In this document: piece after piece, positions 6,856 to 51,035 of the stretch
Numbering within the stretch: the stretch's first letter is position 1
Layout of the letters: every line of letters begins with the position of its first letter
Source of the DNA: Octopus vulgaris
Lineage: Eukaryota
Direction: 5' to 3'
DNA: 64,000 bases
NCBI GenBank assembly: GCA_951406725.2
Contig: OX597832.1
Span: 43,586,001 to 43,650,000 of the forward strand
Position numbers and translations under genes: made by a program
The notes under the pieces: generated by a model
What the model was told of the DNA's origin: nothing
Seen by the model: only the letters and a program-made list of their open reading frames with translations
The model's database searches: none

Positions 6856-6878
6856 GTGAGTTACAGAAATAAGAAATA

Positions 6879-10113: not shown

Positions 10114-12596
10114 GTCAGGTAAATAGATCCCAGGACTTGACTGGTAGTTTATTTTATCTCAACCCTGAAGGGTATGAAGGCAAAGTCAGGTAAATAGATC
10201 CCAGGACTTGACTGGTAGTTTATTTTATCTCAACCCTGAAGGGTATGAAGGCAAAGTCAGGTAAATAGATCCCAGGACTTGACTGGTAGTTTATTTTATC
10301 TCAACCCTGAAGGGTATGAAAGCAAAGTCAGGTAAATAGATCCCAGGACTTGACTGGTAGTTTATTTTATCTCAACCCTGAAGGGTATGAAGGCAAAGTC
10401 AGGTAAATAGATCCCAGGACTTGACTGGTAGTTTATTTTATCTCAACCCTGAAGGGTATGAAGGCAAAGTCAGGTAAATAGATCCCAGGACTTGACTGGT
10501 AGTTTATTTTATCTCAACCCTGAAGGGTATGAAGGCAAAGTCAGGTAAATAGATCCCAGGACTTGACTGGTAGTTTATTTTATCTCAACCCTGAAGGGTA
10601 TGAAGGCAAAGTCAGGTAAATAGATCCCAGGACTTGACTGGTAGTTTATTTTATCTCAACCCTGAAGGGTATGAAGGCAAAGTCAGGTAAATAGATCCCA
10701 GGACTTGACTGGTAGTTTATTTTATCTCAACCCTGAAGGGTATGAAGGCAAAGTCAGGTAAATAGATCCCAGGACTTGACTGGTAGTTTATTTTATCTCA
10801 ACCCTGAAGGGTATGAAGGCAAAGTCAGGTAAATAGATCCCAGGACTTGACTGGTAGTTTATTTTATCTCAACCCTGAAGGGTATGAAGGCAAAGTCAGG
10901 TAAATAGATCCCAGGACTTGACTGGTAGTTTATTTTATCTCAACCCTGAAGGGTATGAAGGCAAAGTCAGGTAAATAGATCCCAGGACTTGACTGGTAGT
11001 TTATTTTATCTCAACCCTGAAGGGTATGAAGGCAAAGTCAGGTAAATAGATCCCAGGACTTGACTGGTAGTTTATTTTATCTCAACCCTGAAGGGTATGA
11101 AGGCAAAGTCAGGTAAATAGATCCCAGGACTTGACTGGTAGTTTATTTTATCTCAACCCTGAAGGGTATGAAGGCAAAGTCAGGTAAATAGATCCCAGGA
11201 CTTGACTGGTAGTTTATTTTATCTCAACCCTGAAGGGTATGAAGGCAAAGTCAGGTAAATAGATCCCAGGACTTGACTGGTAGTTTATTTTATCTCAACC
11301 CTGAAGGGTATGAAGGCAAAGTCAGGTAAATAGATCCCAGGACTTGACTGGTAGTTTATTTTATCTCAACCCTGAAGGGTATGAAGGCAAAGTCAGGTAA
11401 ATAGATCCCAGGACTTGACTGGTAGTTTATTTTATCTCAACCCTGAAGGGTATGAAGGCAAAGTCAGGTAAATAGATCCCAGGACTTGACTGGTAGTTTA
11501 TTTTATCTCAACCCTGAAGGGTATGAAGGCAAAGTCAGGTAAATAGATCCCAGGACTTGACTGGTAGTTTATTTTATCTCAACCCTGAAGGGTATGAAGG
11601 CAAAGTCAGGTAAATAGATCCCAGGACTTGACTGGTAGTTTATTTTATCTCAACCCTGAAGGGTATGAAGGCAAAGTCAGGTAAATAGATCCCAGGACTT
11701 GACTGGTAGTTTATTTTATCTCAACCCTGAAGGGTATGAAGGCAAAGTCAGGTAAATAGATCCCAGGACTTGACTGGTAGTTTATTTTATCTCAACCCTG
11801 AAGGGTATGAAGGCAAAGTCAGGTAAATAGATCCCAGGACTTGACTGGTAGTTTATTTTATCTCAACCCTGAAGGGTATGAAGGCAAAGTCAGGTAAATA
11901 GATCCCAGGACTTGACTGGTAGTTTATTTTATCTCAACCCTGAAGGGTATGAAGGCAAAGTCAGGTAAATAGATCCCAGGACTTGACTGGTAGTTTATTT
12001 TATCTCAACCCTGAAGGGTATGAAGGCAAAGTCAGGTAAATAGATCCCAGGACTTGACTGGTAGTTTATTTTATCTCAACCCTGAAGGGTATGAAGGCAA
12101 AGTCAGGTAAATAGATCCCAGGACTTGACTGGTAGTTTATTTTATCTCAACCCTGAAGGGTATGAAGGCAAAGTCAGGTAAATAGATCCCAGGACTTGAC
12201 TGGTAGTTTATTTTATCTCAACCCTGAAGGGTATGAAGGCAAAGTCAGGTAAATAGATCCCAGGACTTGACTGGTAGTTTATTTTATCTCAACCCTGAAG
12301 GGTATGAAGGCAAAGTCAGGTAAATAGATCCCAGGACTTGACTGGTAGTTTATTTTATCTCAACCCTGAAGGGTATGAAGGCAAAGTCAGGTAAATAGAT
12401 CCCAGGACTTGACTGGTAGTTTATTTTATCTCAACCCTGAAGGGTATGAAGGCAAAGTCAGGTAAATAGATCCCAGGACTTGACTGGTAGTTTATTTTAT
12501 CTCAACCCTGAAGGGTATGAAGGCAAAGTCAGGTAAATAGATCCCAGGACTTGACTGGTAGTTTATTTTATCAACCCTGAAGGGTATGAAGGCAAA
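10114..12596. repeat. 71-bp tandem satellite, 35 copies, derived from a SINE interior
   Basis: Unit GTCAGGTAAATAGATCCCAGGACTTGACTGGTAGTTTATTTTATCTCAACCCTGAAGGGTATGAAGGCAAA. Units start at 10114, 10185 and so on. Near-identical copies; the last unit has a 2-bp deletion. Continues into SINE sequence GTCGACC...ATTTGAACTC. Confidence 0.95.
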
Positions 12597-13210
12597 GTCG
12601 ACCTGAGCAGGATTTGAACTCAAAATGTAAAAGCAAGAATAGCTATGTCAAGGTATTTTTTTCTAAAGCTCTAATGGTTCTACCGATTCACCATCCTTTC
12701 TTATAATAACTGATTCAAATTTTGGCACAAGGCCAGCAATTTTAGAGAGAGGACATTATTGGATTACACTGTATTTATTTTCAGATGCTCTGTGTTTCTT
12801 TCACTTACTTTAAATATAACAAAGAATTTAGTAAAATAACTTAGTTATAATTAAGCTAGTGTTAGGAACATAAATTGTGACTAAGGTTTGGTGGAAGATT
12901 TTAATTCAAAACTTATGAAAACAAGACATTTGTACTCAGATCCAGATCCGGTTTCAGCCAGGTTGGTAATGAAAAGGTTAAGTACTTGACTTGTACTTAC
13001 CCTATTGACTCCAAAACAATGGAAAACAAATGTGATATTGTGAGGTTTGAACTTAGAATATAAAGAACCAGAAAAACAACCAGTAAGTACTAATGATTTT
13101 GCCAGCGTGCCATCGTATCCTTAGCTATAGTAATGTTAACACTTTTAAATACAATGTCACCTATATTATAGATGTTTTTGATAGTTTCTGATTTTCATTT
13201 CTGTAAACAG

Positions 13211-14775: not shown

Positions 14776-15905
14776 TTACATGACGGGCTTCTTTCAGTTT
14801 CCGTCTACCAAATCCACTCACAAGGCTTTGGTCGGCCCGAGGCTATAGTAGAAGACACTTGCCCAAGGTGCCACGCAGTGGTTAAGAAGTTTGCTTCAGA
14901 ACCGTGAGGTTTCAGGTTCAGTCTCACATTGGGGGAATATCTTCTTCTATATCTCTGGGCTGGCCAATGCCTTGTGAGTGAATTTGGTAGACAGAAACTG
15001 TAGGAAGCCTATGTGTATAGTTTGTATGCATGAGTGTTGACATCCTATGGTTTCACTCGAATGAAACAGTGAATTGTATTTAATATCCCTTGATAGGCGC
15101 AGGAGTGGCTGTGTGGTAAGTAGCTTGCTAACCAACCACATGGTTCTGGGTTCAGTCCCACTGCGTGGCATCTTGGGCAAGTGTCTTCTGCTATAGCCCC
15201 AGGCCGACCAATGCCTTGTGAGTGGATTTGGTAGGCGGAAACTGAAAGAAGCCCGTCGTATATATGTATATATATGTGTGTGTGTGTTTGTCCCCTTAGC
15301 TTTGCTTGACAACCGATGCTAGTTTGTTTACGTCCCCATCACTTAGCGGTTCGGCAAAAGAGACCGATAGAATAAGTACTGGGCTTACAAAGAATAAGTC
15401 CCGGGGTCGATTTGCTCGACTAAAGGCGGTGCTCCAGCATGGCCGCAGTCAAATGACTGAAACAAGCAAAAAAGAGTAAAAGAGTATCCCTTGTTGATAT
15501 TTTCATTGATCAGTCTGCACCTTTGAAGACCTGTGAAAAAAATCCCTAGTTGAGAAAAAAGTAGGGGTTGGGGACAGGGAGAGCATCTGAACATAAAATC
15601 TAGCTTCAGTATATTTCTGTCCAACCTGTGCCTACCATGGAAAAACAGACATTAAACAAATTAATTCAATCCGATAATTAACATTCAATACATGATTAAA
15701 TAACATCATCTAATTATGGTTTTGTTTTATTTTTTTGGTTTGAAGAAACAACCAAAAATATAAATTACATTTGATTTCCTATATAAGTAGACTGATATTG
15801 TTTTGTCGTTCTTATGAGATCTGTTTAAAAGAAAAATAAACCTTCGTTATATGTTGATGTATATCTTTTATTTACATACATTGGTTGGTTCCTTGATTTA
15901 TGAAG

Positions 15906-16064
15906 CTGAAAAATGTGATAACTGTGGAAAGTTAGATGAACATATAATGAAATGTGTCAAATGCAAAATTGCAAAATATTGCTCAAAATCTTGTCAAATA
16001 TCCGCATGGCCTCTTCACAAGAAATCCTGTAAATCTTCCAATAACTCGAAGGATGTTTTGAAAG
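15906..16064 (+). CDS. Gene A: last MYND-finger exon (159 bp, phase 1-1)
   Basis: AAG acceptor, in the same position as in the B and C paralogous exons. [42 protein letters not shown]... Donor GTAAGT. Confidence 0.85.
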
Positions 16065-17239: not shown

Positions 17240-17415
17240 ATCATCTCATCAAAACCATACGGTACGCACAATGGCTGTTTCCTTCATTCAAAATAATTCC
17301 TATATTCGTTGATTTTATAAAGGAAGTTGAAGCTAATCAGAAAGGAAATGTTCTTCTTGTTGCTTTCATAGTAAAAGAAGAAATTGTTTTTTATAAACCA
17401 AATTATATAATTTCA
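17240..17415 (+). CDS. Gene A: C-terminal domain exon 1 (phase 1-0)
   Basis: TTTTAG acceptor. DHLIKTIRYAQWLFPSFKIIPIFVDFIKEVEANQKGNVLLVAFIVKEEIVFYKPNYIIS. Donor GTGAGT. Aligns with 51831-52009 (N.LLV..I.KE...F.P). Confidence 0.8.
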
Positions 17416-17537
17416 GTGAGTATATTTGTAGTCTTTTATTCAATTTACCTTAACGAGTGATGTACCTAGTACTAACTAATGTATTTATATGCATATTTTT
17501 ATTTAAATAATAATAAACTTTTTTTCATTTTTTTTAG

Positions 17538-17714
17538 GATATTGATGGTTATGCGAAAATTTTGTTATTTAATTTCAATGACCAGGATCCATCTCCATAT
17601 TTTTCCTGGGAACAACTGAAACCAGAAATGTGTATTTGTATCTTGAACCCTAAAATTTGTCCAGAATATAAAGTTATTTCAATTGATTCTGCTGAGCAAA
17701 TTCGAATTATGTAA
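17538..17714 (+). CDS. Gene A: terminal exon, C-terminal domain part 2
   Basis: TTTTAG acceptor. DIDGYAKILLFNFNDQDPSPYFSWEQLKPEMCICILNPKICPEYKVISIDSAEQIRIM*. Clear paralogues at 24636-24803 and 48917-49102. Confidence 0.85.
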   Translation, partial: DIDGYAKILLFNFNDQDPSPYFSWEQLKPEMCICILNPKICPEYKVISIDSAEQIRIM

Positions 17715-18030: not shown

Positions 18031-18771
18031 CAGGGTGTCCCAAAAAAATGTATACACACCTTAAATAATTGTAAATTTGGGGTTTGTTATAATTCAAATA
18101 ATTTTCAACATGTAAAAGAATTTACAAATATCTGATGTCCATTCTGCTCCAGACACTGCTGACAACACGAAGCCATGGAATGGCACACATCATGGAACAA
18201 TTCCCTTGGGATATTCGTACATTCATGTTCAATGGTTGCCCTCAATTGAACGACTGTTGCAGGTTTCTGTGCGTAGACTTTGTCCTTTAGGTATCCCCAT
18301 AAAAAGAAGTCTAGTGGTGTGGGGTCTGGTGAACGTGGAGGGTATTCGACAAAACCTCTCCGTCCAATCCACCTGTTTGGCAAGATCCCATCAAGAAAGG
18401 ATCTAACATCGCGATGGTAGTGTGGAGGTGCCCCATCTTGCTGGAAATAAAACTCTTCCTGTTCAAAGTCCTCTCTAATGCTTGGCATGACAGACTGTTG
18501 CAGCATGTTTGTTTGTTTTTGTTTTTGTTTTTCCAGTTTCAGCTCTTGAGCTGTGGCCATGCTGGGGCACCGCCATTGTGGTGAAAGAGTACAGCAGGAA
18601 TCACCACCCCCTGCCGGAGCCTCGTAGAGCTTTTAGGTGTTTTCGCTCAATAAACACACACAACGCCCAGTCTGAGAATCGAAACCGCGATCCTGCGACT
18701 GCGAGTCCGCTGCCCTAACCACTAGGCCATTGCGCCTCTACAATGTGTATACATTTTTTGGGGACACCCTG
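18031..18771 (-). mobile_element. Internally deleted Tc1/mariner element with TIRs and TA TSD, carrying a nested SINE
   Basis: TA|CAGGGTGTCCCAAAAAAATGTATACACA ... TGTGTATACATTTTTTGGGGACACCCTG|TA. Transposase fragment FQQDGAPPH...PPRSPDPTPLDFFLWGYLK. Confidence 0.9.
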
Positions 18772-22928: not shown

Positions 22929-23737
22929 TATCAGGTTGTTGTCGAGAAGATAATGAAGCAATAACCGAATCAGCCGAAGTGGGTCTGTGAGAAAATTCCA
23001 TTATTCTATCTGCAGATGATGCGATTTGATCTATAGTGTTGGTGTCAACCATATTCGCCAATATCGTCTGTACATTGGTTGGTAAGAGGGAAAAAAATAA
23101 TTGTTTTTACGAAGAAGCTGTCCGCAGGTGTATCTGATCTGCCTAAGAAATTTTGAAGGAGTTCTATCTCCCAGGTTCTCATCCTGTAACAAAGCACGGA
23201 AACGGCTTTCTGCTGATTTAGAATTTCTGCGTAGTATTTCTGTTCTCAAAGAATCATAGGTCATGCCTTGTGGAAGATCTAAGATGATATCTTTAATGGT
23301 ATCTGCTAAAATGGCAGGAATGCCACTAATAAGCACTGTGGCTTTTGTTGAGACGGCTTGTATACCATGTGCTGTGAAGTAAGAATCAAGCTGTGCAAAC
23401 CATAGCTTAGCATCGCCAGAATAAGCTGGTATGGAAGTGTTACTCGTGATTATGCCAAAGAACAGGCGTGATAAGTGACTTTCTTATTTGACGCGTAAGA
23501 CACGAAATTGTTTCAAAACTAGAATATCTGAGGTGTTGGTAGAGTAATGTAGAAATTACATTGAAGAGTGTAGTGTGGTGCCGATTTACCATGTGTTGTG
23601 GGTTGCATATTCAAAAAGTTGGGTTTACAATTTTGTGGCGGTTATCGTGTTCTTAACGTCGGGGTTACCATTTTATAATGATGTTGATTAAGTGTCATCC
23701 TATAATTTAATAAGCATGAGAGAAAGAGGGGTCACCA
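22929..23737 (-). mobile_element. Ty3/Gypsy LTR retrotransposon gag remnant
   Basis: WFAQLDSYF..HGI...YDSLRTEILRR...LLQDENLGDRTPSKFLRQIR is typical of Gypsy gag. PBS-like TGGT(G/A)ACCCC at 23728-23737 and 23661-23670. Confidence 0.72.
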
Positions 23738-24356
23738 TCTTGTACGTAACGACAAGAAATTAAGAATTTACGAGACGTTTGTAGTAAGTTGTAACAGGAC
23801 GAGAGGTCCCCCTCACTGGATGGGTTCAGCTCGCATCCTTTACATTAAAAATATTAATCAAAGGAAAGAGTCAAGATTTCTGATTAACTTCAACAGTATA
23901 AATATTTATTTCTTGATTCGCAAAATATACGTTCTTCTTTCTGGGCTGTGAAACATGGACAGTGTACCAATGTCATGCATAGAAACTGAACCGCTTTCAT
24001 ACCCCCACCCCTTTCCCAGAAAGCTTCTTGGCATAAAGGGGCAAGACAAAACCCCAGATACTGAGATACTCATTCTAGTCTGCCTATCATCTACACCATC
24101 CTGATGTCCCAGCTTTCCAGGTCATATAGTTTGCAAGCCAGACCATCAGCTCCCAAAATAACTATTATATGGTGAACTCCAACAAGGCAAACACTTTGGA
24201 AGCACTTCGTCAGTTACGACGACGAGGGTTCCGGTTGATCCGAATCAACGGAACAGCCTGCTCGTGAAATTAACGTGTAAGTGGCTGAGCACTCCACAGA
24301 TAGATAGGTAGGTAGGTAGGTAGGTTGGTAGGTAGGTAGGTAGGTAGGTAGGTAGG

Positions 24357-24390
<34 letters not shown>

Positions 24391-24533
24391 TATAGATAGG
24401 AAGATAGATAGATAGGTAGGTAGATAGGTAGGTAGGTAGGTAGATAGATAGGTAGGTAGATAGATAGGTAGGTAGATAGATAGGTAGGTAGGTAGATAGA
24501 TAGGTAGGTAGATAGATAGATAGGTAGGTAGGT

Positions 24534-24565
<32 letters not shown>

Positions 24566-24635
24566 GTGGGGGAGAAAGAGGAGTAAAATGAATGCTTGAT
24601 AAAATAATTTATTTTAACCTCTATTTTACAAAAAC

Positions 24636-24803
24636 TCAAAATTTTTCAGCAGAATCAATTGCATAAAATTTATATTCTGGGGAAATTATGGGCTTCAGAA
24701 TACAAATATAATTCCCATATTTCAGCTGGTCCCAGGAAAAATATGGACGAGGATCAAGTTCTTTGAGATAAAATATCACACATTTCGTATAACCATTACT
24801 ATC
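24636..24803 (-). CDS. Gene B: terminal exon, C-terminal domain part 2
   Basis: DSNGYTKCVIFYLKELDPRPYFSWDQLKYGNYICILKPIISPEYKFYAIDSAEKF*. Paralogous to the terminal exons of A and C. The stop falls where A has CGA (Arg). Confidence 0.78.
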   Translation of the reverse strand, partial: DSNGYTKCVIFYLKELDPRPYFSWDQLKYGNYICILKPIISPEYKFYAIDSAEKF

Positions 24804-25090
24804 CTTAAATAAATAAAAAAAAAAAAAAGGTTTATTATCATTTAAATGAAAATATGCATGTATATACATTATTTAGTATCTAGCTTCCAACGACAGTTGT
24901 ATTCTATCCAATTCTGTCAAACACAGGAGCAGGAGTGGCTGTGTGGTAAGTAGCCTGCTTACTAACCACATGGTTCCGGGTTCAGTCCCACTGCGTGGCA
25001 TCTTGGGCAAGTGTCTTCTGCTATAGCCCCGGGCCGACCAAAGCCTTGTGAGTGGATTTGGTAGACGGAAACTGAAAGAAGCCTGTCGTA

Positions 25091-25147
<57 letters not shown>

Positions 25148-25581
25148 TTGTCCCCCTAGCATTGATTGACAACCGATGCTGGTGTGTTTACGTCCCCGTC
25201 ACTTAGCGGTTCGGCAAAAGAGACCGATAGGATAAGTACTGGGGCTTACAAAGAATAAGTCCCGGGGTCGATTTGCTCGACTAAAGGCGGTGCTCCAGCA
25301 TGGCCGCAGTCAAATGACTGAAACAAGTAAAAGAGTAAAAGAGTAAAGAGTACACAAAATACAAATTGTAGGAAAGATGATTGAATTAATTATTTTCTTT
25401 ATGAAACAACTTCAGTTTCTATGGTTTAAAAATTTTTTTACTGCGCTGCAAATATTTAAAGGACTACCATAATCATCTTTTATAGTCTGTAGCTAGATTT
25501 AAGAATAGCTACAAAATTAGTAGGTATTTTGTTAGATAATGTATAAAGCATTAAATATAGAATCTTCCAAAAATCCAAGTT

Positions 25582-25621
<40 letters not shown>

Positions 25622-26240
25622 GCTTAACGTCCGTTTTCCATGCTAGCATGGGTTGGACGGTTCAACCAGGGTCTGGGAAGCCAGGAGGCTGCACCAGGCT
25701 CCAGTCTGATCTGGCAGTGTTTCTACAGCTGGATGCCCTTCCTAACGCCAACCACTCCGTGAGTGTAGTGGGTGCTTTTTACGTGCCACCAGCACAGGTG
25801 CCAGGGTTGGCTGGCAACGGCCTTGATCAGTTGGTGCTTTTTACATGCCACCAGCACAGAAGCTAGTCAAGGCGACGCTGGCATTGGCCACATACAGATG
25901 GTGCTTTTTAGGTGCCAGGGTAGGCTGGCAACGGCCACGATCGGTTGGTGGTTTTTACGTGCCACCGACACGGAAGCCAGTCAAGGCGACGCTGGCATTG
26001 GCCACATACAGATGGTGCTTTTTAGGTGCCAGGGTAGGCTGGCAACGGCCACAATTGGTTGGTGCTTTTTACGTGCCACCAGCAGAGAACATGAATGAGT
26101 GGAGATGATAGAGAAAAAAAAATGAAATGAAATAGACAGGGAGAAAGAGTAAGATCTTTTTTTATAGAATTAAAACTATACAAATTGAATAAAATTGAAT
26201 AAAACTATAAAATTCAATAAAATAAAAGAAATCTACTCAC

Positions 26241-26382
26241 TATGATGATATAATTTTTCCTGCAGCTGAGATCTGATTCTTGTAAAATCCTAGCAATAAG
26301 AAGAGTGTTTTCTCTTCTATTCAGTTGTTGGTTTTCATTGTAAAAATTGAAAAACTACACGAAAATACTATGCCGAAATGAC
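26241..26382 (-). pseudogene. Gene B: C-terminal domain exon 1 with apparent 1-nt frameshift
   Basis: TTTCAG acceptor and GTGAGT donor. Length is 142 nt; phase 1-0 needs 143. Adding one T to the T5 run (26350-26354) gives GHFGIVFSCSFFNFYNENQQLNRRENTLLIARILQESDLSCRKNYIII, homologous to the A and C exons. Confidence 0.65.
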
Positions 26383-26594
26383 CTGAAAGAAAAATTTAGA
26401 AATTGAAAATTATAAAACAAAAATAAATTATACAAGTAAAAATATGACTGCAGAAAACCATTGAAATCAGTGGGAAGTGGAAAAAGGTTAGTCGATTACA
26501 TCAACCCTATTACTTGGCTTGTATTTATTTTATTGACCCCTGAAAGGGTGAAAAATAAAAATCAACATTAGCAGAATTTGAACTCAAAATGTAA

Positions 26595-26800
26595 AGCAAG
26601 ATGGTCACGTACTACGGATGGACGAGGAGAGATGTGTGAAGAAGTGCCACTCCCAAACAGTTGAAGGAATTCGGAGTAGAGGTAGACCCAGGAAGACATA
26701 GAATGAGGTGGCCAAGCACGACCTTCGAACGTTGGGCCCCATAGAGGCAATGACGAAAGACCGAGATCTCTGGAGATATGCTGTGACTGTGAAGACCTGA
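26595..26800 (+). mobile_element. RTE LINE 3' end fragment
   Basis: HVLRMD..RCVK...GRPRKT*.EV.KHDL...AMTKDRDLWR is an RTE ORF C-terminus. Confidence 0.65.
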
Positions 26801-28564
26801 CAAATAACGTGAGTTCATGGCTGTTTCCTACACCAGTTTTGCATAGCAGCCCCAGCCCATCCAAAGTACCTTGGATCACAGAACAACCTGCTGTGCTTAC
26901 CTTGGATCGTAGGGTGACCTGCTGTGCTTGAGGAGACCTATTGAGTCAAGTATATCAACATCAAAATAAAAATCAAATGGAAATTGTAGTTGTGATAGCT
27001 GTGCCGGTGGCATGTAAAACGCACCATCCGAACATGGCCTATGCCAGTGCCGCCTTGACTGGCTTCTATGCCGGTGGCATGTAAAAAGCACCAACCGATT
27101 GTGGCCGCTGCCAGCCTCCCCTGATACCTGTGCCGGTGGCACGCAAAAACCATCCACTACACTCTCGGAGTGGTTGATGTTAGGAAGGGCATCCAGCTGT
27201 AGAAACACTGCCGGATCAGACTGGAACCTGGTGCAGCCTCCTGGCTTCCCAGACCTCGAATCGAACCGTCCAACCCGTGCTAGCATGGAAAATGGACATC
27301 AAACGATGATGATTTGTTCAGTGTGCTGATGATTCGGCCATCTCATCATTGCAAGGCATTTTGTCAGACACTCTTGTTCCTGTCAATTGTTATTTGACAT
27401 TTCTAAATATATAAAAACCTCAAAGATACAATTTTCTGAGTTTAGAAGTCATATATTAAGTAATTATCTACATAATACATACGATATAGTGCATATAGAT
27501 GGTAAATGTACTTCATTTCCAAATTTATTCCTGTCAAATTTTATCCGTTATTTTTGTGGTTTATAGAACCTAGCTGTTCTCTCTAATGTGTTGAATTTCA
27601 CGCTAATTGAAATTCCTTATGTGTATAAATTTGCACTATATCGTATGACTAATATATAGTCTTCTTGACTAATTTTTCTTGCACGTTAGACCACTGGAAA
27701 CGTAGATTTTGATTGAATATTTTAAATTCCATTTCCCTTTGATATGATTATACATAATACATACATATATACATCATATATCCAGGCATATTCCCCAATT
27801 TTTTAGGAAGGGTAGCCACAACAAGACACACACCAGGTATTCCATTCATTTCCCAGCTCAGAATTTACAAATAGTATCGCCCAGCATTGCTCAGATTTGT
27901 AAGGGAAATAACTATAAAGCATTTTTAGAGAGTTATAGCCAAAAAAATAGCAAAAAATGCATTAAAAATGGGAAAAAAATTATGGTAAATTTTTTTTTAA
28001 ATCGTTGACTCATCGTAGACATTTTTAGAGAGTTACTTCCCTTTATTTAAAGAATATGCATTAAAATGGAAAAAAATTATGGTAAAATATTTTTTAAATC
28101 GTAGACTCATCGTAGACGCGCGCTAATACCCAGAAGGGCTCGATATGAATCACGACTATAAGATACCCGCTTTTGGTTAAACTGCATCGCAAAATGTGGG
28201 AGTAGTTAGGAATCTAAATCGGAGTAGACAGACACACAACCTTTCTTTTATATATAAAGATTAATATTACTTATCATGGCTAACCACATTGGGGAGGGGG
28301 TTGTTACTGTAGCTTTATAGCCCCAAGAGATCTTCGTCTCTAGCTGGCTCTAAACACAATATCTGTGTCTTTGGAGTATTTGCAAAGGGAGGCCATCCCT
28401 TCCTCGCAAGCCTGAGTGATACGCTCGAACTAGTTTTGGAATGTTTGTCCCTCGTCAACGGGCGGCAACCACCAGGTAGCGATGAAAGTGAAGGCTCCTT
28501 TGCAAATAGATATTCACTGTTTTAATATGCTTATTCCAAAATTATTTCAAAACACGGAACTTAC

Positions 28565-28732
28565 CTCTGCTTGTTAGATATGAATCATTTGTGTTGCTAG
28601 GAGGTTTACAGGATTTCTCGTGAAGAGGCCATGCAGATATTTGACAAGATATTGAGCAATATTTTGCAATTTTGCATTTGGTACATTTCATTAAATGTTC
28701 ATCTAACTTTCCACAGTAATCACATTTTTCAG
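28565..28732 (-). CDS. Gene B: tandem MYND exon copy 4 (168 bp, phase 1-1)
   Basis: EKCDYCGKLDEHLMKCTKCKIAKYCSISCQISAWPLHEKSCKPPS... AAG acceptor, GTAAGT donor. Confidence 0.82.
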
Positions 28733-29807
28733 CTTCATAAATCAAGGAACCAACCAATGTATGTAAATAAAAGATATACATCAACATATAACGAAGGTTT
28801 ATATAAGAACGACAAAACAATATCAGTCTACTTATATAGGAAATCAAATGTAATTTATATTTTTGGTTGTTTCTTCAAACCAAAAAATAAGACAAAACAG
28901 TAATTAGATGATGTTATTTAATCATGTATTAAATGTTAATTATTGGATTAAATTAATTTGTTTAACATCTCTGTATTTCGTCCGCTGTTACATTCTGAGT
29001 TCAAATTCCACCAAGGTCAACTTTGCCTTTCATCCTTTCGGGGTCAATTAAATAAGTACCAGTTACGCACTGGGGTTGATATAATCGACTTAATCTATTT
29101 GTCTGTCCTTGTTTGTCCTCTCTGTGTTTAGCCGCTTGTGGGTAGTAAAGAAATAGGTATTTCGTCTGCTGTTACGTTGTGAGTTCAAATTCCACCAAGG
29201 TCGACTTTGCCTTTCATCCTTTCGGGGTCGATAAATTAAGTACCAGTTACGCACTGGGGTCGATGTAATCGACTTAATCCCTTTGTCTGTCCTTGTTTGT
29301 CCCCTCTATGTTTATCCCCTTGTGGGCAATAAAGAAATAAGAAAACTGATAATCTTTAACATGGGGATGGTTCAGCTATATACATACGAAAAATAGCAAG
29401 TAACAAAGTTCTCCATTGCCAAGCTCCAAATGTTTTTGAATAGCTGTCTTCAGAACATCCTTCGGACAAGATAGCAAGACAGTCTCACAAACAAAGCCTT
29501 ATGAGAACAGATGAACCAGTAACTTATCAAACCCAGATCAAGAGATGGAGCCAGATTTAGATGCCATTCCACATTTAGTTCTGTCCATGTTCACCGAGTT
29601 AAAATACTTCTTGTGTTGATTGTACTTTTCTTTTACTTTCTGGGCTCAATGAAGTAGGTAACAGTAACATGCCATTAGTGATTCGATGGCCTGTATGATT
29701 CACCTACAAATTAGTGAACCTTGAGTCTGTGTGATAAATTAATAAATGTAAGATATTCACTGTTTTAATATGCTTATTCCAAAATTATTTCAAAACACAG
29801 AACTTAC

Positions 29808-29975
29808 CTCTGCCTGTTAGATGTGAATCATTTGAGTTGCTAGGAGGTTTACAGGATTCCTTGTGAAGAGGCCATGCGGATATTTGACAAGTTAATGAGC
29901 AATATTTTGTAATTTTACATTTGACACAGTTCATTAAATGTTCATCTAACTTTCCACAGTTATCACATTTTTCAG
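29808..29975 (-). CDS. Gene B: tandem MYND exon copy 3 (168 bp, phase 1-1)
   Basis: EKCDNCGKLDEHLMNCVKCKITKYCSLTCQISAWPLHKESCKPPS... AAG acceptor, GTAAGT donor. Confidence 0.82.
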
Positions 29976-31029
29976 CTTCATAAATCAAGGAACCAACCAA
30001 TGTATGTAAATAAAAGATATACATCAACATATAACGAAGGTTTATTTTTCTTTTAAACAGATCTCATAAGAACGACAAAACAATATCAGTCTACTTATAT
30101 AGGAAATCAAATGTAATTTATATTTTTGGTTGTTTCTTCAAACCAAAAAATAAGACAAAACAGTAATTAGATGATGTTATTTAATCATGTATTAAATGTT
30201 AATTATTGGATTAAATTAATTTGTTTAACATCTCGGTATTTCGTCCGCTGTTACATTCTGAGTTCAAATTCCACCAAGGTCAACTTTGCCTTTCATCCTT
30301 TCGGGGTCAATTAAATAAGTACCAGTTACGCACTGGGGTTGATATAATCGACTTAATCTATTTGTCTGTCCTTGTTTGTCCTTTCTGTGTTTAGCCGCTT
30401 GTGGGTAGTAAAGAAATAGGTATTTCGTCTGCCGCTACGTTCTGAGTTCAAATTCCGCCAAGGTCGACTTTGCCTTTCATCCTTTCGAGGTCGATAAATT
30501 AAGTACCAGTTACGCACTGGGGTCGATGTAATCGACTTAATACCTATGTCTGTCCTTGTTTGTCCCCTCTATGTTTAGCCCCTTGTGGGTAATAAAGAAA
30601 TAGGTACTTAATTTAATCGACCCCGAAAGGTTCTCCATTGCCAAGCTCCAAATGTTTTTGAATAGTTGTCTTCAGAACTTCCTTTGGACAAGATAGCAAG
30701 ACAGTCTCACAAACAAAGCCTTATGAGAACAGATGAACCAGTAACTTATCAAACCCAGATCAAGAGATGGAGCCAGGGTTAGATGCCATTCCACATTTAG
30801 TTCTGTCCATGTTCACCGAGTTAAAATACTTCTTGTGTTGATTGTACTTTTCTTTTACTTTCTGGGCTCAATGAAGTAGGTAACAGTAACATACCATTAG
30901 TGATTCGATGGCCTGTATGATTCACCTACAAATTAGTGAACATTGAGTCTGTGTGATAAATTAATAAATGTAAGATATTCACTGTTTTAATATGCTTATT
31001 CCAAAATTATTTCAAAACACAGAACTTAC

Positions 31030-31197
31030 CTCTGCCTGTTAGATGTGAATCATTTGAGTTGCTAGGAGGTTTACAGGATTTCTTGTGAAGAGGCCATGCA
31101 GATATTTGACAAGATTTTGAGCAATATCTTGCAATTTTGCATTTGGCACATTTCTTTAAATGTTCATCTAACTTTCCACAGTTATCACATTTTTCAG
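31030..31197 (-). CDS. Gene B: tandem MYND exon copy 2 (168 bp, phase 1-1)
   Basis: [45 protein letters not shown]... AAG acceptor, GTAAGT donor. Confidence 0.82.
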
Positions 31198-32292
31198 CTT
31201 CATAAATCAAGGAACCAACCAATGTATGTAAATAAAAGATATACATCAACATATAACGAAGGTTTATTTTTCTTTTAAACAGATCTCATAAGAACGACAA
31301 AACAATATCAGTCTACTTATATAGGAAATCAAATGTAATTTATATTTTTGGTTGTTTCTTCAAACCAAAAAATAAGACAAAACAGTAATTAGATGATGTT
31401 ATTTAATCATGTATTAAATGTTAATTATTGGATTAAATTAATTTGTTTAACATCTCTGTATTTCGTCCGCTGTTACATTCTGAGTTCAAATTCCACCGAG
31501 GTCAACATTGCTTTTCATCCTTTCGGGGTCAATTAAATAAGTACCAGTTACGCACTGGGGTTGATATAATCGACTTAATCTATTTGTCTGTCCTTGTTTG
31601 TCCTCTCTGTGTTTAGCCGCTTGTGGGTAGTAAAGAAATAGGTATTTCGTCTGCTGTTACGTTGTGAGTTCAAATTCCGCCAAGGTCGACTTTGCCTTTC
31701 ATCCTTTCGGGGTCGATAAATTAAGTACCAGTTACGCACTGGGGTCGATATAATCGACTTAATACCTATGTCTGTCCTTGTTTGTCCCCTCTATGTTTAT
31801 CCCCTTGTGGGCAATAAAGAAATAAGAAAACTGATAATCTTTAACATGGGGATGGTTCAGCTATATACATACGAAAAATAGCAAGTAACAAAGTTCTCCA
31901 TTGCCAAGCTCCAAATGTTTTTGAATAGCTGTCTTCAGAACATCCTTCGGACAAGATAGCAAGACAGTCTCACAAACAAAGCCTTATGAGAACAGATGAA
32001 CCAGTAACTTATCAAACCCAGATCAAGAGATGGAGCCAGGGTTAGATGCCATTCCACATTTAGTTCTGTCCATGTTCACCGAGTTAAAATACTTCTTGTG
32101 TTGATTGTACTTTTCTTTTACTTTCTGGGCTCAATGAAGTAGGTAACAGTAACATACCATTAGTGATTCGATGGCCTGTATGATTCACCTACAAATTAGT
32201 GAACCTTGAGTCTGTGTGATAAATTAATAAATGTAAGATATTCACTGTTTTAATATGCTTATTCCAAAATTATTTCAAAACACAGAACTTAC

Positions 32293-32445
32293 CTCTGCCT
32301 GTTAGATGTGAATCATTTGAGTTGCTAGAAGATTTACAGGATTCCTTGTGAGGAGACCAAAATATTGAGAAATATTTTGCAATTTTACATTTGTCACATT
32401 TGATTAAATGTTCATCTAACTTTCCACAGTAATCACATTTTTCAG
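32293..32445 (-). CDS. Gene B: tandem MYND exon copy 1 (degenerate, 15-bp in-frame deletion)
   Basis: EKCDYCGKLDEHLIKCDKCKIAKYFSIFWSPHKESCK... lacks Cys5/Cys6. Splice sites intact, 153 bp, phase 1-1. Confidence 0.7.
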
Positions 32446-33187
32446 CTTCATAAATCAAGGAACCAACCAATGTATGTAAATAAAAGATATACATCAACAT
32501 ATAACGAAGGTTTATTTTTATAAAAGATAGAACTCACAAAAATAAGAAAACACTCTCAGACTATTTACAAAGGAAGTCAAATATAATCTAAATTCTTGGG
32601 TTTTTTTCTTCAAATGGAACAAAAGAACAGAACAAAATGCTAATTAAATGCTGTAATTCAATCCTGTTTTGAATATCAATTAGTGGATTAAACTCCTGCT
32701 TAAATTAAACTCCTAAATGTCTGCTTTTCCATGCTAGCCATAAGTTGGAGAGAAAATGTTTAAGGCTTAAATTTTACAGTCAGGTGGTTGCCCTGTCACC
32801 AACCTGTACTGGTTTCTCAAATAGGGGTTTTCCCTGCAGGTCTTTAAAAGTGCAGAGTGACCAGTTAAAATGTCAACATGGAAAGTTAAATATTATTCAC
32901 TGTTGCACTCAAATGAAGCCTTATGTCAACATATTTGCACATTCAGACACACATACACAACAGAGTTTCTGCAATTTTTCTCTACCACATTCAGTCATAA
33001 GGCATTAGCCAATCCAAAGATACTGCAGAAGACATTCTGCAATATACATACATACATACATACATCACCATGATCACTGTGACTGACCAAACTATCAGAT
33101 GTTGCTACACATCGCTGGGCACAATGTGCTTCGCATTGTTTTAGACTTCAAATGACGCCACCTTGCTGGCTAAGTGAGCAGGCCTTA

Positions 33188-33980
33188 CATACATACATAC
33201 GTACATACATACATACATACATACATACATACATACATACATAAATACATACATACATAAATACATACATAAATACATAAATACATACATACATACATAC
33301 ATACATACATAAATACATACATACATACATAAATACATAAATACATACATAAATACATACATACATACATACATACATACATACATAAATACATACATAC
33401 ATACATACATACATAAATACATACATATATACATACATACATACATAAATACATACATAAATACATACATACATACATACATACATACATACATACATAC
33501 ATACATACATAAATACATACATACATACATACATAAATACATAAATACATACATACATACATACATAAATACATAAATACATACATATATACATACATAC
33601 ATACATAAATACATACATAAATACATACATACATACATACATACATACATAAATACATACATACATACATACATACATACATAAATACATACATACATAC
33701 ATACATACATACATACATACATAAATACATACATACATATATACATACATACATACATACATAAATACATACATACATACATACATACATACATACATAA
33801 ATACATACATAAATACATACATACATACATAAATACATACATAAATACATACATAAATACATACATACATACATACATACATACATACATACATACATAC
33901 ATACATACATACATGCATACATAAATACATACATACATACATACACACATACATAAATACATAAATACATACATACATAT
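33188..33980. repeat. (ATAC)n/(ATAA) microsatellite, ~800 bp
   Basis: Direct reading. Other large microsatellites at 4381-4500, 24300-24565, 39357-39640, 39995-40360, 43150-44250, 56630-56887 and 62715-63615. Confidence 0.95.
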
Positions 33981-34345
33981 ATATGGAACCGCATTAGCGG
34001 TCAAGGTGATGAAATATAGGTGTGTCAGTGAACAGTAAACAAGGGAAGGGGCATAAATAATATTAAGCAATGAATATCAGTTTGGGGGAAGGTGAAGGGA
34101 ATAAAAGGGGGTCGAGCAGAAGAAGGTGATAAGCGGATTTCAAAAACAAGGGAGCGGGTGGAGAGCAGCATTGTAAGAAATAGGGAGAGCAGCATTGTAA
34201 GAAATAGGGAGAGCAGCATTGTAAGAAATGATGTGAAGTATGGGAGAGAGAGAGAGTGGGGTGGGATCAGTAATAAGGGGGGGAATCAAAGGCATATGCT
34301 TTAAAAATCTCCAAATATTCAAAAGAAATCGGAAAAGCCAATTAC

Positions 34346-37300
34346 CAATATCCTCTTTGCTCTTCACCTTGACTCTCTTTTTCTTACTCTTCCTCTTCTT
34401 GCTCACTTTCTTCTTACTGTCTATTCCACCATCTTTGCCCTTATAGTCCATATTTCCAGCGTTTCCCTTGCTAGCCTTTCTGTCACTATCCTTTCTGTTG
34501 ATGTCAACTCTGTCGTCTGTCTTACAAGTGGCTCCGTCATTCTCTATATTGACATTGTTGACATTCTTACGCTTTTTTCTTCTATTTCTTTTCTTTTTAG
34601 TCTTATTGCCTACCTTGCTGTCCACCTCACAACCATCCTCATCATCTACGCTCACACTGTTCTCCTTTACTGGATCCTTTTTGATAATTCCCTCCTTGCT
34701 ATACTCATGGCCACTCCCTTTCTCATACTTCATCTCAGCATTCATTTCTGGAGCCTTACAATTGCTTTTAGCATTTCCCTTGCTAGCCTTTGTGTCACTA
34801 TCCTTTCTGTTGATGTCAACTCTTTCGTCTGTCTTACAAGTGGCTCCGTCATTCTCTATATTGACGCTGTTGACATTCTTACTCTTTTTATTCTTATTGC
34901 CTACCTTGCTGTCCCCCTCACAACCATCCCCATCATCAACGCTCACACTGTTCTCCTTCACTGGATCCTTTTTGATACTTCCCTCTTTGCTATACTCATG
35001 GCCACTCCCCTTCTCATACTTCATCTCAGCATTCATTTCTGGAGCCTTACAATTGCTTTTAGCATTTCCCTTGCTAGCCTTTGTGTCACTATCCTTTCCG
35101 TTGATGTCAACTCTGTCGTCTGTCTTACAAGTGGCTTCGTCATTCTCTATATTGACACTGTTGACATTCTTAAGCTTTTTTCTTCTATTTCTTTTCTTTT
35201 TAGTCTTATTGCCTACCTTGCTGTCCACCTCACAACCATCCTCATCATCTACACTCACACTGTTCTCCTTTACTGGATCCTTTTTGATAATTCCCTCCTT
35301 GCTATACTCATGGCCACTCCCTTTCTCATACTTCATCTCAGCATTCATTTCTGGAGCCTTACAATTGCTTTTAGCATTTCCCTTGCTAGCCTTTGTGTCA
35401 CTATCCTTTCTGTTGATGTCAACTCTTTCGTCTGTCTTACAAGTGGCTCCGTCATTCTCTATATTGACACTGTTGACATTCTTACGCTTTTTATTCTTAT
35501 TGCCCACCTTGCTGTCCCCCTCACAACCATCCCCATCATCTACGCTCACACTGTTCTCCTTTACTGGATCCTTTTTGATAATTCCCTCCTTGCTATACTC
35601 ATGGCCACTCCCTTTCTCATACTTCATCTCAGCATTCATTTCTGGAGCCTTACAATTGCTTTTAGCATTTCCCTTGCTAGCCTTTGTGTCACTATCCTTT
35701 CCGTTGATGTCAACTCTGTCGTCTGTCTTACAAGTGGCTCCGTCATTCTCTATATTGACACTGTTGACATTCTTACGCTTTTTTCTTCTATTTCTTTTCT
35801 TTTTAGTCTTATTGCCTACCTTGCTGTCCCCCTCACAACCATCCTCATCATCAACGCTCACACTGTTCTCCTTTACTGGATCCTTTTTGATAATTCCCTC
35901 CTTGCTATACTCATGGCCACTCCCTTTCTCATACTTCATCTCAGCATTCATTTCTGGAGCCTTACAATTGCTTTTAGCATTTCCCTTGCTAGCCTTTGTG
36001 TCACTATCCTTTCTGTTGATGTCAACTCTTTCGTCTGTCTTACAAGTGGCTCCGTCATTCTCTATATTGACACTGTTGACATTCTTATGCTTTTTTCTTC
36101 TATTTCTTTTCTTTTTAGTCTTATTGCCTACCTTGCTGTCCCCCTCACAACCATCCTCATCATCAACGCTCACACTGTTCTCCTTTACTGGATCCTTTTT
36201 GATAATTCCCTCCTTGCTATACTCATGGCCACTCCCCTTCTCATATTTCATCTCAGCATTCATTTCTGGAGCCTTACAATTGCTTTTAGCATTTCCCTTG
36301 CTAGCCTTTGTGTCACTATCCTTTCCGTTGATGTCAACTCTGTCGTCTGTCTTACAAGTGGCTCCGTCATTCTCTTTATTGACACTGTTGACATTCTTAC
36401 GCTTTTTTCTTCTATTTCTTTTCTTTTTATTCTTATTGCCTACCTTGCTGTCCCCCTCACAACCATCCCCATCATCAACGCTCACACTGTTCTCCTTTAC
36501 TGGGTCCTTTTTGATAATTCCCTCCTTGCTATACTCATGGCCACTCCCCTTCTCATATTTCATCTCAGCATTCATTTCTGGAGCCTTACAATTGCTTTTA
36601 GCATTTCCCTTGCTAGCTTTTGTGTCACTATCCTTTCCGTTGATATCAACTCTGTCGTCTGTCTTACTAGTGGCTCCGTCATTCTCTATATTGACGCTGT
36701 TGACATTCTTACTCTTTTTATTCTTATTGCCTACCTTGCTGTCCACCTCACAACCATCCCCATCATCAACTCTCACACTGTTCTCCTTTACTGGGTCCTT
36801 TTTGATAATTCCCTCCTTGCTATACTCATGGCCACTCCCTTTCTCATACTTCATCTCAGCATTCATTTCTGGAGCCTTACAATTGCTTTTAGCAATTCCC
36901 TTGCTAGCCTTTGTGTCACTATCCTTTCCGTTGATATCAACTCTGTTGTCTGTCTTACTAGTGGCTCCGTCATTCTCTATATTGACGCTGTTGACATTCT
37001 TACTCTTTTTATTCTTATTGCCTACCTTGCTGTCCACCTCACAACCATCCCCATCATCAACTCTCACACTGTTCTCCTTTACTGGGTCCTTTTTGATAAT
37101 TCCCTCCTTGCTATACTCATGGCCACTCCCTTTCTCATACTTCATCTCAGCATTCATTTCTGGAGCCTTACAATTGCTTTTAGCAATTCCCTTGCTAGCC
37201 TTTGTGTCACTATCCTTTCCGTTGATGTCAGCTCTGTCGTCTGTCTTACAAGTGGCTCCGTCATTCTCTATATTGACACTGTTGACATTCTTATGCTTTT

Positions 37301-37865
37301 TATTCTTATTGCCCACCTTGCTGTCCCCCTCACAACCATCCCCATCATCAACGCTCACACTGTTCTCCTTTACTGGATCCTTTTTGATAATTCCCTCCTT
37401 GCTATACTCAAGGCCACTCCCCTTCTCATACTTCATCTCAGCATTCATTTCTGGAGCCTTACAATTGCTTTTATGTGATGGCCAATCATATTTCTGGCAG
37501 TCAATTGAACAGTAGTAAGTTGTTTTGCACTTAGAACATTTCCATAAAGGAATATTAGTTCTGAAACATGTTTCACAACAGCTTCCCATTTTACCATTGG
37601 GACTGTCTTTTAAACACTCCTTTTTACTATCTGTTTTTTCATTATTTGATTTTTTTCTAACATTGGGACATGATACTTCTGATTCAGTCAATGGATTTAT
37701 TTGATTCCGTGTAGTTTGAGGAGTAAAACACACTCTGCTGTGTTCTTTTTGGTGCTTTCTTTCACAATTTTTGGAACAATAGGAAACAATTTTGCACTGT
37801 GAACATTGATAAAGAGAAGCTTTCACCTGACCACAATTTTGGCAACAATCTTCAATTTTAACCAT
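34346..37865 (-). CDS. Gene B: large exon with 2 MYND fingers + 10 tandem 97/104-aa charged repeats
   Basis: Acceptor TTTCAG (exon from 37883), ATG at 37865. MYND1 CQNC..CSQC..YCSKNC..H..EHSRVC; MYND2 CETC..CSKC..YCSIDCQKYDWPSHKSNC. Open frame through the repeats. Phase-1 donor G|GTAATT at 34346/34345, the same site as in gene C. Confidence 0.88.
34459..37471 (-). repeat. Coding minisatellite, 10 units of 291/312 bp
   Basis: CAATTGCTTT recurs at spacings 291,312,291,312,312,312,291,291,291. Protein unit KSNCKAPEMNAEMKYEKG...KASKG(N/I)A. Confidence 0.95.
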
Positions 37866-39354
37866 TTTGAATTTAATGTAAATCTGAAATATTAAAAACA
37901 AAAAAAAAAAGAAGGAATAATATTTTATAATTAAACAATTTCTTGCCTATTTGTTTTAAAATAAATAGAAAAGAAAAGCTACTGTGATGGTTAAGATTAA
38001 AAGGTACAAAACAACCAGTTATATTTATATGACAGGATATTTTTGTCTGATGAAATGAAATCACTATCTAATGTGCAATAGTATTTATGTCATCCATTTT
38101 TTTTGCTCAAACATCTGGATGTTATTTGGTTGGCTTGATGAACATATTTCATCACCTTCATCCCTGTTCTTCAAATGGTCTTTCTGATTTATACCAGGTA
38201 CACCTAAAAAGTTTAGGAGTGAGTAAAATAATTTCTCAGCTGAAAAAACATTTTAAATGTTGCTGAGGTCTCCACCTTGGTGGACTATGTAATTTTTCCA
38301 TTCTTTGCTGTTACAATCTGTGCCAGTTTTAGACACTATTCTATATTTAAATTTGGTTTTGATATCATATCAATATCTGGGTAGATGGGAAGAAAAGAAG
38401 AAAAAATATAAGCAAAGAGTGATATCGTTTTACTCTTTTTATATAAAATAGAATTTGATCAAAGGTTACAAAATCTAATTTATCAGAGGTTACATAATCT
38501 AATCAATCAACGGTTAGACAGTCTAATCTAAGATAGAGAATCCAACAACAATTTTGCTCTATATATTAATTTAAACTGTTTAATCTTTGGTTAATAAAAA
38601 AATAAGAGGTAGCCAGCTTTATTGGTAACTTAGTGTTGTATAATGAAACTCTATACTTCTCCTGGTAAAAAGTAGTAGGAAAGAGCCATTATAAATAGAC
38701 CCCAAGTTGTCAAGAGAGAGTCGAGAGTCAAAGAATTGAGAGTTGACAGTTCTAGTTGGTGTCTTATGGAGCTATCAGCAATCGCCTCCTTATAAATGGG
38801 CAACTACCACCTGAATCATCTCTTGTGAAAGGTAGAAGAGTCCAGTTTGCTGGACATTGTTGTAGAGCTGAAATCGAGGTAATTTCTACTCTTCTCTTCT
38901 GGCTGGATGGTTTGACTGAAGACTGGTGAGCCAGAGGCTGCACCAGGCTCCAGTCTGATCTGGCAAAGTTTCTACAGCTAGATGTCCTTCCTAACGCCAA
39001 CCACTCCGAGAGTGTAGTGAGTGCTTTTACGTGCCACCGGCACGGGGGCTAGTCAAGCGGTTCTCACAACGACCATGTTCAACTGTTGTTTTTCATGTGC
39101 CACCAGCAAATGTGCCAGTAAAGCAACGATCACGCTTGAATGGTGCTTTTCACGTGTCACCGGCACAGGAGCCAATCCGTGACCCTGGCAATGATCACTC
39201 TCCGATGTGCTTTTAACGTTCCACTGGCACGAGGGCCAATCAGGCGGTACTGTCATCGGCCACGTCAGCAATTTTGATTTTGATTTCACTTGCCTCTATA
39301 GGTCTTCACAAGCAAGGTTTATTGTCCAATGAATGAGGAGTATTCATAAATGGG

Positions 39355-48916: not shown

Positions 48917-49102
48917 TTATAAAACCCTAACTTCCTCAGTAGAATTAATTCTAAAACCAACTTGTCCATCAAGAAAATAATGAAACTCCGGTTCCAAGAT
49001 ACAAATATATTTCCCAACTTTCAGTTGGTCCCAGGAAAAATACGGATAAGGATCTGATTCTTGGTGATAGAATATTAGACTACATATGCCACCTTCAATA
49101 TC
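48917..49102 (-). CDS. Gene C: terminal exon, C-terminal domain part 2
   Basis: TTTGCAG acceptor. DIEGGICSLIFYHQESDPYPYFSWDQLKVGKYICILEPEFHYFLDGQVGFRINSTEEVRVL*. AATAAA on the minus strand at 48894-48899. Confidence 0.87.
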   Translation of the reverse strand, partial: DIEGGICSLIFYHQESDPYPYFSWDQLKVGKYICILEPEFHYFLDGQVGFRINSTEEVRVL

Positions 49103-51035
49103 CTGCAAAAAGAAGAAAAGTTTATTATTCATCATCATCATCGTTTAGCGTCCGCTTTCCATGCTAGCATGGGTTGGACGGTTCAACTGGAGTCTAGGAA
49201 GCCTGAAGGCTGCACCAGGCCAGTCAGATCTGGCGGTGTTTCTACAGCTGGATGCCCTTCCTAACGCCAACCACTCCGTGAGTGTAGTGGGTGCTTTTTA
49301 TGTGCCACCGACACAGGTGCCAGACGAGGCTGGTGAGAGGCCACGCTCGGATGGTGTTTTTTACGTGCCACCTGCACGGAGGCCAGGTGAGGCTGGCACA
49401 GCCACGATCAGATGGTGTTTGTTACGTGCCACCAGCACGGTGGCCAGTCGATGCGGTGCTGGCTACGGCCACGTTCGGAAGGTTCTCTTATGTGCCACTG
49501 GCACTGGTACCACAAACTACAAATTCCATTGATGTGGATCGATTTCAATTTTGATTTGATTCTTTGATTTTGATTTTGATTAATGAAAATTGAAGTCGTC
49601 GGCTAACAAAATCTTAAGCTCATCAGACAAAATCAAAAGTACCATTTCTTCTTTCTCTTTATATTCTGAGTTCAAATTACACTAAAGTCAATACTGTTTC
49701 CATCTTTTAGGGGGTAAGTCAAGTACTACAGTCAATGTACTAGTTGACTTACCTTCAAAACTGCTGGCCTTGTGCCGAAATTTGAAATTATTATAAAATG
49801 AAAATATGCGTGTAACTACATTCACACAACATCTTTTTCTCTTCATGTGTAATACCTACAGGCATCAGTGATCATAGACATTATACCAAAATCTGAAGAT
49901 TCATAATCTCTCTTGGTAAGGATACAACAGTGAATTCCTGTTGTTTTGCCAATTAAATCATAGTTCCCTCTGCTCATGTCCTTCTCCCCCAAGCTAACCC
50001 TTGAAGTGTAAGACCTACTTAACCCTTAAACATATGGGGTGATTTACATGACATCATGGTATGTGTACACATGGGTAGTGATGGAGTGGGGAGGCTTATG
50101 AGACGTATGTCCAGGGGTCCACCTCACTTCCAAGTCACAGAACCATCTTCTGCTATTTGACCTATAACTGGAGATCTTGACAGGGAATACTACTGTAAGC
50201 CAGCACAGACTTGGAAGTGGCGGCAACTAAAGGGGCATTTCCATACTCCCCAAAACCCTTGAAATCATGAGCTGGAGCCTCACCACACAATGCAGTTTTA
50301 TTTCTTGCCCTGGACAACATATCATCCAATAATAGTTGTTTGATATCCCTCACATCTGATCCTGTTAATCACAATGTGTGTGGGTGTATGTATATATATA
50401 TATATATATAATATATATAAATTAGAGAAAAACCACTATTATGTAATTCAAACAATGATAGGCATAAACCAAATCATAAAGAAAAAATAAAATATATTAT
50501 ATAACATATAACTAGATCACAAAAAGTATATATATATATATAATGAAAGAACTTGCTGTGGACAAGGCTGCGTGGCACTCAATTGGACACTAAACTCTGC
50601 TTGAAGTGTAAGACCCTTTTAACCCTTAAACATTGGGGGTGGTTTACATGACATCTGGGTATGTCCACACACAGTGTCCAATCAAGTAGCCCAAATGTTG
50701 GTATGAGTACTGGCACTGCAAACACATTTTGGGCCACTGTTTTACTGAATGCGGAGAGCTCTGAGGTCCAAATTTTTTTATTCTATTACATAATTTTACA
50801 AGTGTTTTGTAGATATTCCATAAGAACTTTACTGCTTTATCATTATTATATAAATATGTGTAATAATACATAACAACAGTATTACTATACTGATACTGCA
50901 AAAATATCAACTCATCAAGTTTATGTATAAAATCCATTTGCTGGATGAACTTGCATCTCAAGAATATATCCCCTTTGTCCAAGATATTCTTATCATTTCA
51001 ACTGCATATCATAGTTAAAACCCAAGTAGAATTTA

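Follow-up and report, generated by a model that had tools for sequence, protein, structure and literature searches.

MYND fingers normally occur singly and are conserved. In the parts of the published accounts on which we draw (PMC3555993, PMC4742278), ETO, DEAF-1 and BS69/ZMYND11 each carry a single conserved MYND finger, and the C4-C2HC spacing and the pocket of Tyr, Gln and Trp known from them are also present in three of the octopus finger exons described here (c1-c3); the octopus proteins differ from them in having 3-11 fingers each and in that 75% of the positions have an omega >=1. Unnamed eukaryotic proteins with MYND and OB-like domains resemble the octopus proteins in their order, MYND followed by a beta-rich domain of ~120 aa, but the octopus genes have long MYND arrays, and in the gene that is the subject of this study, gene B, the domain is frameshifted. 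For PRDM9, the cited report outlines C2H2 DNA-binding fingers that are encoded in one exon, with an omega of ~10-14 at the contact positions and a species-specific turnover (PMC2779102). Measured against that outline, the octopus array has in common the tandem fingers, concerted evolution and the small number of variable positions; however, its fingers are of the MYND type, lie one per exon, have an omega that is not significantly above 1 and have cores that are common to two species. A divergence peak that persists under gene conversion is known from exon 5 of the primate L/M opsins and from RHCE/RHD, and is covered by the Innan model, as far as these are set out in the cited source (PMC3924837). 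There, as appears to be the case here, the introns and exon ends of the paralogs are homogenised while a coding island groups by ortholog across species, which in octopus holds for the finger core at the protein level. The octopus case differs from that outline in that the repeated units belong, as exons, to a single gene and to a neighbour in inverted orientation and in that the island is ~75 bp long. A mechanism in which selection opposes conversion is already known in kind, and the c1-c4 exons offer a compact natural test of one against the other within a single gene.

The window, i.e., the whole stretch of 64,000 bp of Octopus vulgaris DNA that was analysed, contains gene B, one of seven genes of an apparently undescribed octopus family with a MYND array and a predicted OB-like domain (Table 1). 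The family was not found described in the literature that was searched, although supplementary tables of octopus domain expansions could list it. The last C-terminal-domain exon was found at seven places in the stretches that were examined, this 150-kb cluster holds at least 31 of the at least 43 zf-MYND matches of the genome, and the seventh family gene, on the same contig, has at least three further zf-MYND matches. The exons of gene A (plus strand) matched the Octopus vulgaris protein P0001 at up to 100%. All three of the proteins that were scanned gave zf-MYND only, unaccompanied by a SET, Tudor, PHD or bromo domain. The C-terminal domain (~120 aa) is similar to nameless domains that accompany MYND in molluscs, diatoms and fungi (ESM Atlas clusters); its Atlas model reached a TM of 0.68 to a mollusc MYND cluster and 0.53-0.57, under the Atlas bar, to the OB folds of MCM10 and TTC5, and our own model had a low confidence (pLDDT 55) and no match in Foldseek against the PDB. 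The prediction that the domain is OB-like comes from the Atlas matches and was not borne out by our own model. Taken as a family, these genes point to a cephalopod gene-family expansion.

In gene B, the C-terminal domain is frameshifted, whereas gene A's copy is intact; the length of the out-of-frame exon was determined by a hand count on the sequence. The reading frame of exon 1 is uninterrupted over 1173 codons. Its 10 coding repeats of 291/312 bp (34458-37473) lie inside this single open exon, and the final ones match the Octopus sinensis protein P0002; a paralog at 55291-54176 has one unit only. For the last 19 residues of P0002, no place was found in the window, where the best of the weak matches had an E of 29 near 26374, and a search of Rfam over 24000-38500 gave 0 matches. 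All of the c1-c4 exons share an AG acceptor and a GT donor and are of phase 1 at both ends, as read from the sequence (predicted splicing).

Table 1. Features of gene B and its paralogs in the window (positions counted from the first base of the window)
Feature	Position	Strand	Description
Gene A inverted paralogous segment	15652..16122	+	contains the gene's last MYND exon at 15906-16064; exchanges DNA with c1-c4 by conversion
Gene A C-terminal-domain exons	17240..17714	+	two, intact; predicted OB-like; reference for the loss in gene B
Gene B last exon	24636..24803	-	codes for the C-terminal domain's second half; frame remains open; 53% identity with the gene A exon
Gene B first C-terminal-domain exon	26241..26382	-	142 nt (gene A: 176 nt); frame lost, with a stop following 20 codons
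MYND exon c1	28565..28732	-	168 nt; intact; absent from the O. sinensis model P0002
Three tandem-unit introns	28733..32292	-	1.05-1.10 kb each; a pair of the 184-bp dispersed repeat in each
MYND exon c2	29808..29975	-	168 nt; intact; most derived core
MYND exon c3	31030..31197	-	168 nt; intact; most like the older paralogs
MYND exon c4	32293..32445	-	153 nt; degenerate: Cys to Phe and a 15-nt in-frame deletion
Gene B exon 1	34346..37865	-	ATG at 37865; 3520 nt; phase-1 donor; two MYND fingers, then 10 charged repeats of 97/104 aa
Gene C	48917-55234	-	paralog; 2 + 1 MYND fingers; C-terminal domain intact

The original prediction, which was made from the sequence alone, held that c1-c4 are four young duplicates with an exon-restricted and mostly nonsynonymous divergence. 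Our recount agreed with the 11 differences that had been reported between c2 and c3 (nine nonsynonymous and two synonymous), and every variable residue state that had been listed was seen again. The differences all lie at exon positions 43-117, which corresponds to the ~75 bp in which they were said to cluster, and the ~250 bp of upstream intron that was described as near-identical has 0/254 differences between c2 and c3; among c1-c3, there are no substitutions in the 234-254 bp adjoining each acceptor. However, the c2/c3 intron overall holds 16 differences in 1023 columns, mostly in the repeat pair and with a 72-column indel junction omitted from the count, or 19 in 1041 when a pairwise aligner was used (Fisher p 0.0014 vs the exon), and the divergence is therefore exon-enriched rather than exon-restricted. 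The description as young duplicates fails for c4, which differs from c1-c3 at 28/100 of the intron sites at -199..-100. This exon has lost two zinc ligands and 15 nt, a lesion that is also carried by O. sinensis, and its zf-MYND (PF01753) score of 20.9 bits is below the cut-off of 22.7, while c1, c2 and c3, in which the C4-C2HC spacing and all eight zinc ligands are present, score 42.9, 42.5 and 46.4 bits, respectively. The preponderance of nonsynonymous changes stands as a count but does not exceed chance: because 76-80% of the sites are nonsynonymous, a ratio of 9:2 is the neutral expectation (pN/pS 1.15-1.41, p 0.49-0.61), and the argument for selection from this ratio is invalid. Pairwise dN/dS was dropped as evidence of selection, being without power. 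Under a uniform null for clustering, the maximum of 11 differences in 75 bp was matched in 0/20000 permutations (p 5e-5), a value that is given no weight because the local introns are over-dispersed. It should also be borne in mind that the divergence of these exon copies was chosen for study for its extreme look.

Gene conversion is evident among the copies and with gene A. The inverted paralog sits 13 kb away, in a gene that faces gene B, and its segment is 87-92% identical to the c1-c3 units. Compared with c2 and c3, it matches at 99/99 and 97/100 of the sites in the upstream intron, and 14/39 of the sites differ in the tail of the exon; further upstream, it differs from c4 at 27/100 sites. 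Moreover, all four gametes were present in 12 of the 28 pairs that are formed by eight informative exon sites in five copies. Five of the 11 c2/c3 differences, i.e., both of the synonymous ones and three nonsynonymous, recur in c4 or in the exon of gene A; the remaining six are private and every one of them is nonsynonymous. Since conversion acts among the copies, the identity of their introns is no simple sign of youth. Conversion explains this identity at least in part, an outcome that the original prediction had itself named as telling against it. An unseen donor copy was considered and rejected, as a DNA search of the genome gave only the eight known exon loci (nine matches); short homologous fragments were not found in other assemblies. 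The last finger of gene C differs from c3 at one position in ~50 nt of the second half of the core, and it is possibly a further donor or the ancestral state for c3. In O. sinensis, isoform P0006 lengthens the gene A exon by seven residues upstream (window 15884-15906), and some of the invariant intron end may therefore be under splicing constraint. The 184-bp dispersed repeat, which we take to be probably an octopus SINE, is found at 28973-29339 and in many other places, in tandem pairs within each unit; of the 22 changes in the introns of c1-c3, 15 fall in this repeat.

The likeliest reading of the locus, to which we would assign a probability of roughly 0.55, is that selection holds the cores of c1-c3 apart while conversion acts. 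According to this proposal, the four tandem MYND-finger copies would exchange DNA with each other and with the inverted paralog via conversion, which would have homogenised the introns and exon ends, while selection would keep the c1-c3 cores distinct so that the fingers differ somewhat in the proteins that they bind. Amino-acid changes that came in an early burst, once the exon had been duplicated, may have been favoured and later shielded from overwriting, and the gene B protein, minus the predicted OB-like domain, could act as a multi-finger adaptor for proline-rich motifs. The observed basis of this proposal is the tandem units, the intact splice sites, the mosaic variants, an excess of amino-acid changes relative to those in the introns, the untouched ligands and the position-matched O. 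sinensis cores. Among c1-c3, there are 15 nonsynonymous changes in ~128 sites vs 22 changes in ~1003 sites of the intron (p 3e-6, or p 0.004 when set against its most variable part), and two synonymous changes in 37 sites (p 0.21 vs the intron). The 11 codons for ligand and pocket residues are spared by all of the 15 (p 0.03; p 0.01 for the core alone), and the zinc ligands are unchanged in c1-c3, unlike in c4. The private changes in c1-c3 are nonsynonymous in a ratio of 12:0 (p 0.048 for a post hoc partition), or 11:0 (p ~0.06, by hand) with site 52 taken as imported. In a simulation of neutral two-copy conversion (eight settings of 1500 runs each, conditioned on 21-33 differences), no more than 0.8% of the runs gave a peak of 11 differences in 75 bp within the exon, and no more than 7% gave one anywhere.

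The codon models gave less. The dN/dS of the intact copies was never significantly above 1 (M0 omega 1.6-2.5, p 0.11-0.44 across four fits), and M2a was preferred over M1a with the broken c4 (p 0.035 and 0.047) but not without it (p 0.11 and 0.43); such models presume a single tree, an assumption that conversion breaks. Codon 17, which has four states, was selected in all of the M2a fits. Across 34 fingers of the family, with branch lengths fixed up to scale, conversion ignored and c4 and two shorter fingers left out, 25% of the sites were fixed, 64% neutral and 10% had an omega of 2.3 (M2a over M1a, p 0.008). That most positions of the array, the ligands aside, change at least as fast as under neutrality suggests that the partners have diversified. 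At the same time, because 64% of the finger positions fit an omega of 1, a 9:2 mix is to be expected for older variation that was imported by conversion. The exon-1 repeats of gene B (97 codons) have a nonsynonymous to synonymous ratio of 20:12 (omega ~0.53, p 0.06), which does not contrast significantly with the 15:2 of the fingers (Fisher p 0.096); a strong purifying look in their first 48 codons (4:7) was dropped in favour of the full count. Selection on the cores, as originally proposed, is likely, but it does not follow from dN/dS, the basis that was offered for it.

Comparison with O. sinensis, for which one annotated protein was used at the protein level, gives these differences an age. 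P0002 holds three exons that correspond to c4, c3 and c2 in the same order, and their cores (residues 13-29) show 1, 1 and 0 differences, respectively, from those exons vs 3-7 from the other gene B copies; the residues at 5, 39 and 43-44, which lie beyond the core, have changed places among the copies. The position-matched cores indicate that the core differences predate the split of the species and have since then been neither altered nor overwritten. As judged from these proteins, the cores appear to show stasis since the split rather than fast turnover. The species group is given as <2.5 My old with 0.0036 substitutions/site/My in the part of the source on which we rely (10.1101/573493). 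The divergence between species that is expected from these values (~1.8%) is close to that of the c2/c3 intron (1.6%), and hence the copies need not greatly predate the species and there was little time in which stasis could be tested.

The prediction had placed the variable sites on the binding surface. The contact positions of the DEAF-1/ETO and BS69 MYND fingers, to the extent that they are reported in the cited sources (PMC3555993, PMC4742278), were mapped by Cys spacing to codons 13, 14, 15, 17, 24, 30, 31, 34 and 43. Three of the eight codons that changed between c2 and c3 (14, 15 and 17, which lie on the peptide-pairing beta1 strand of those sources) are on this surface, which takes up 9/33 positions; some of the changes do lie there, but without enrichment (p 0.37). 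The residues Y24, Q30 and W34, mapped in the same manner and corresponding to the pocket of MYND fingers that bind PXLXP/PPPLI, are unchanged across c1-c3, and these fingers would therefore likely still bind proline-rich motifs, with an altered preference for the flanking residues.

The main competitor of selection on the cores, which we consider less probable by a clear distance, is that a truncated and weakly constrained gene was subject to patchy conversion among five paralogs, which by chance left a core island of old and new variants. A dN/dS compatible with 1 and the five of 11 differences that are common to older paralogs are what this account expects, and so is the last exon, in which gene B vs gene A has a pN of 0.25 and a pS of 0.215; the frameshifted C-terminal exon and the dead c4 are compatible with gene B losing constraint. 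It also gains from genes A and E. In the introns next to their shared exons, there are up to 10 differences per 75 bp over a background of 2.7%, which means that patchy divergence occurs without selection. However, neutrality sits poorly with the unchanged ligand and pocket codons of c1-c3, with private changes that are entirely nonsynonymous, with the rarity of the simulated peak within the exon and with an exon 1 that has stayed open along its whole length; nor does it account for a tail that is likely disordered and yet identical in c2 and c3, whereas the folded core differs. If this neutral account is true, the locus is a cautionary example of conversion mimicking positive selection.

Genes A and E are arranged head-to-head and share a 6.8-kb inverted segment of 95% identity (window 1000-7736 (+) and G000:C19:43540875-43547689 (-)) with five MYND exons. 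Four of these exons are near-identical, with two nonsynonymous and two synonymous changes in 203 codons, and the remaining one has a nonsynonymous to synonymous ratio of 8:0, of which finger 8 itself makes up 6:0. The five changed codons of this finger include positions 14, 17 and 27, which are multi-state in gene B (p 0.002 for this overlap, post hoc; p 0.15 with all ten variable positions). This second duplicate pair speaks in favour of selection on the cores.

The original prediction pointed to arms-race genes. In a reading of this kind, which we regard as unlikely, an arms race would be ongoing: the fingers would have as their targets the fast-changing proteins of a virus, parasite or transposon, and conversion would reshuffle the cores into new specificities, in a manner like MHC or PRDM9. 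An arms race would predict turnover, yet the c2 and c3 cores differ from those of O. sinensis by 0 and 1 residue, and the known contact surface, within the sources named above, is without enrichment. The four states of codon 17 in every M2a fit, the family-wide M2a result and the concentration of the MYND matches of the genome in one cluster argue in its favour, as does the binding of viral PXLXP motifs by BS69, a mammalian MYND protein, as described in the cited source (PMC4742278). Additionally, the last finger and finger 8 of gene A differ between the species by five and six residues, respectively, vs 0-2 in the eight other fingers that were comparable, another one being garbled in the O. 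sinensis model. Conversion from paralogs can also explain these changes: the last finger is c3-like in one species and c2-like in the other, and finger 8 of O. sinensis is of the gene E type save one residue. As far as the sequences can tell, the change in the last finger would fit an exchange between genes A and B, and it leaves room for faster evolution. More doubtful still is an extended version in which the MYND-array cluster would be a diversifying recognition repertoire against foreign or selfish proteins, with each finger on a symmetric exon of its own, duplication, reshuffling by conversion across inverted genes that face each other, an OB-like domain that binds nucleic acids and gene B as a decoy or sensor without that domain. 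An assembly artefact, by which alleles or collapsed copies were placed in tandem and thus gave identical introns, could account for the lack of an O. sinensis counterpart of c1 but is very improbable, as the independently annotated O. sinensis keeps the c4, c3, c2 order with its diagnostic residues and the three introns are set apart by differences at 22 sites as well as by indels.

The window also contains repeats and mobile-element remnants. In an intron of gene A (10114-12599), a 71-bp unit is present 35 times with an identity of 99%, and directly past the last MYND exon of gene C (53067-53453), there are four 96-bp repeats at 98% identity that are open on both strands. Open frames at 425-925, 18108-18632 and 23034-23483, all on the minus strand, are presumably reverse-transcriptase, DDE-transposase and gag-like fragments, judging by their look.
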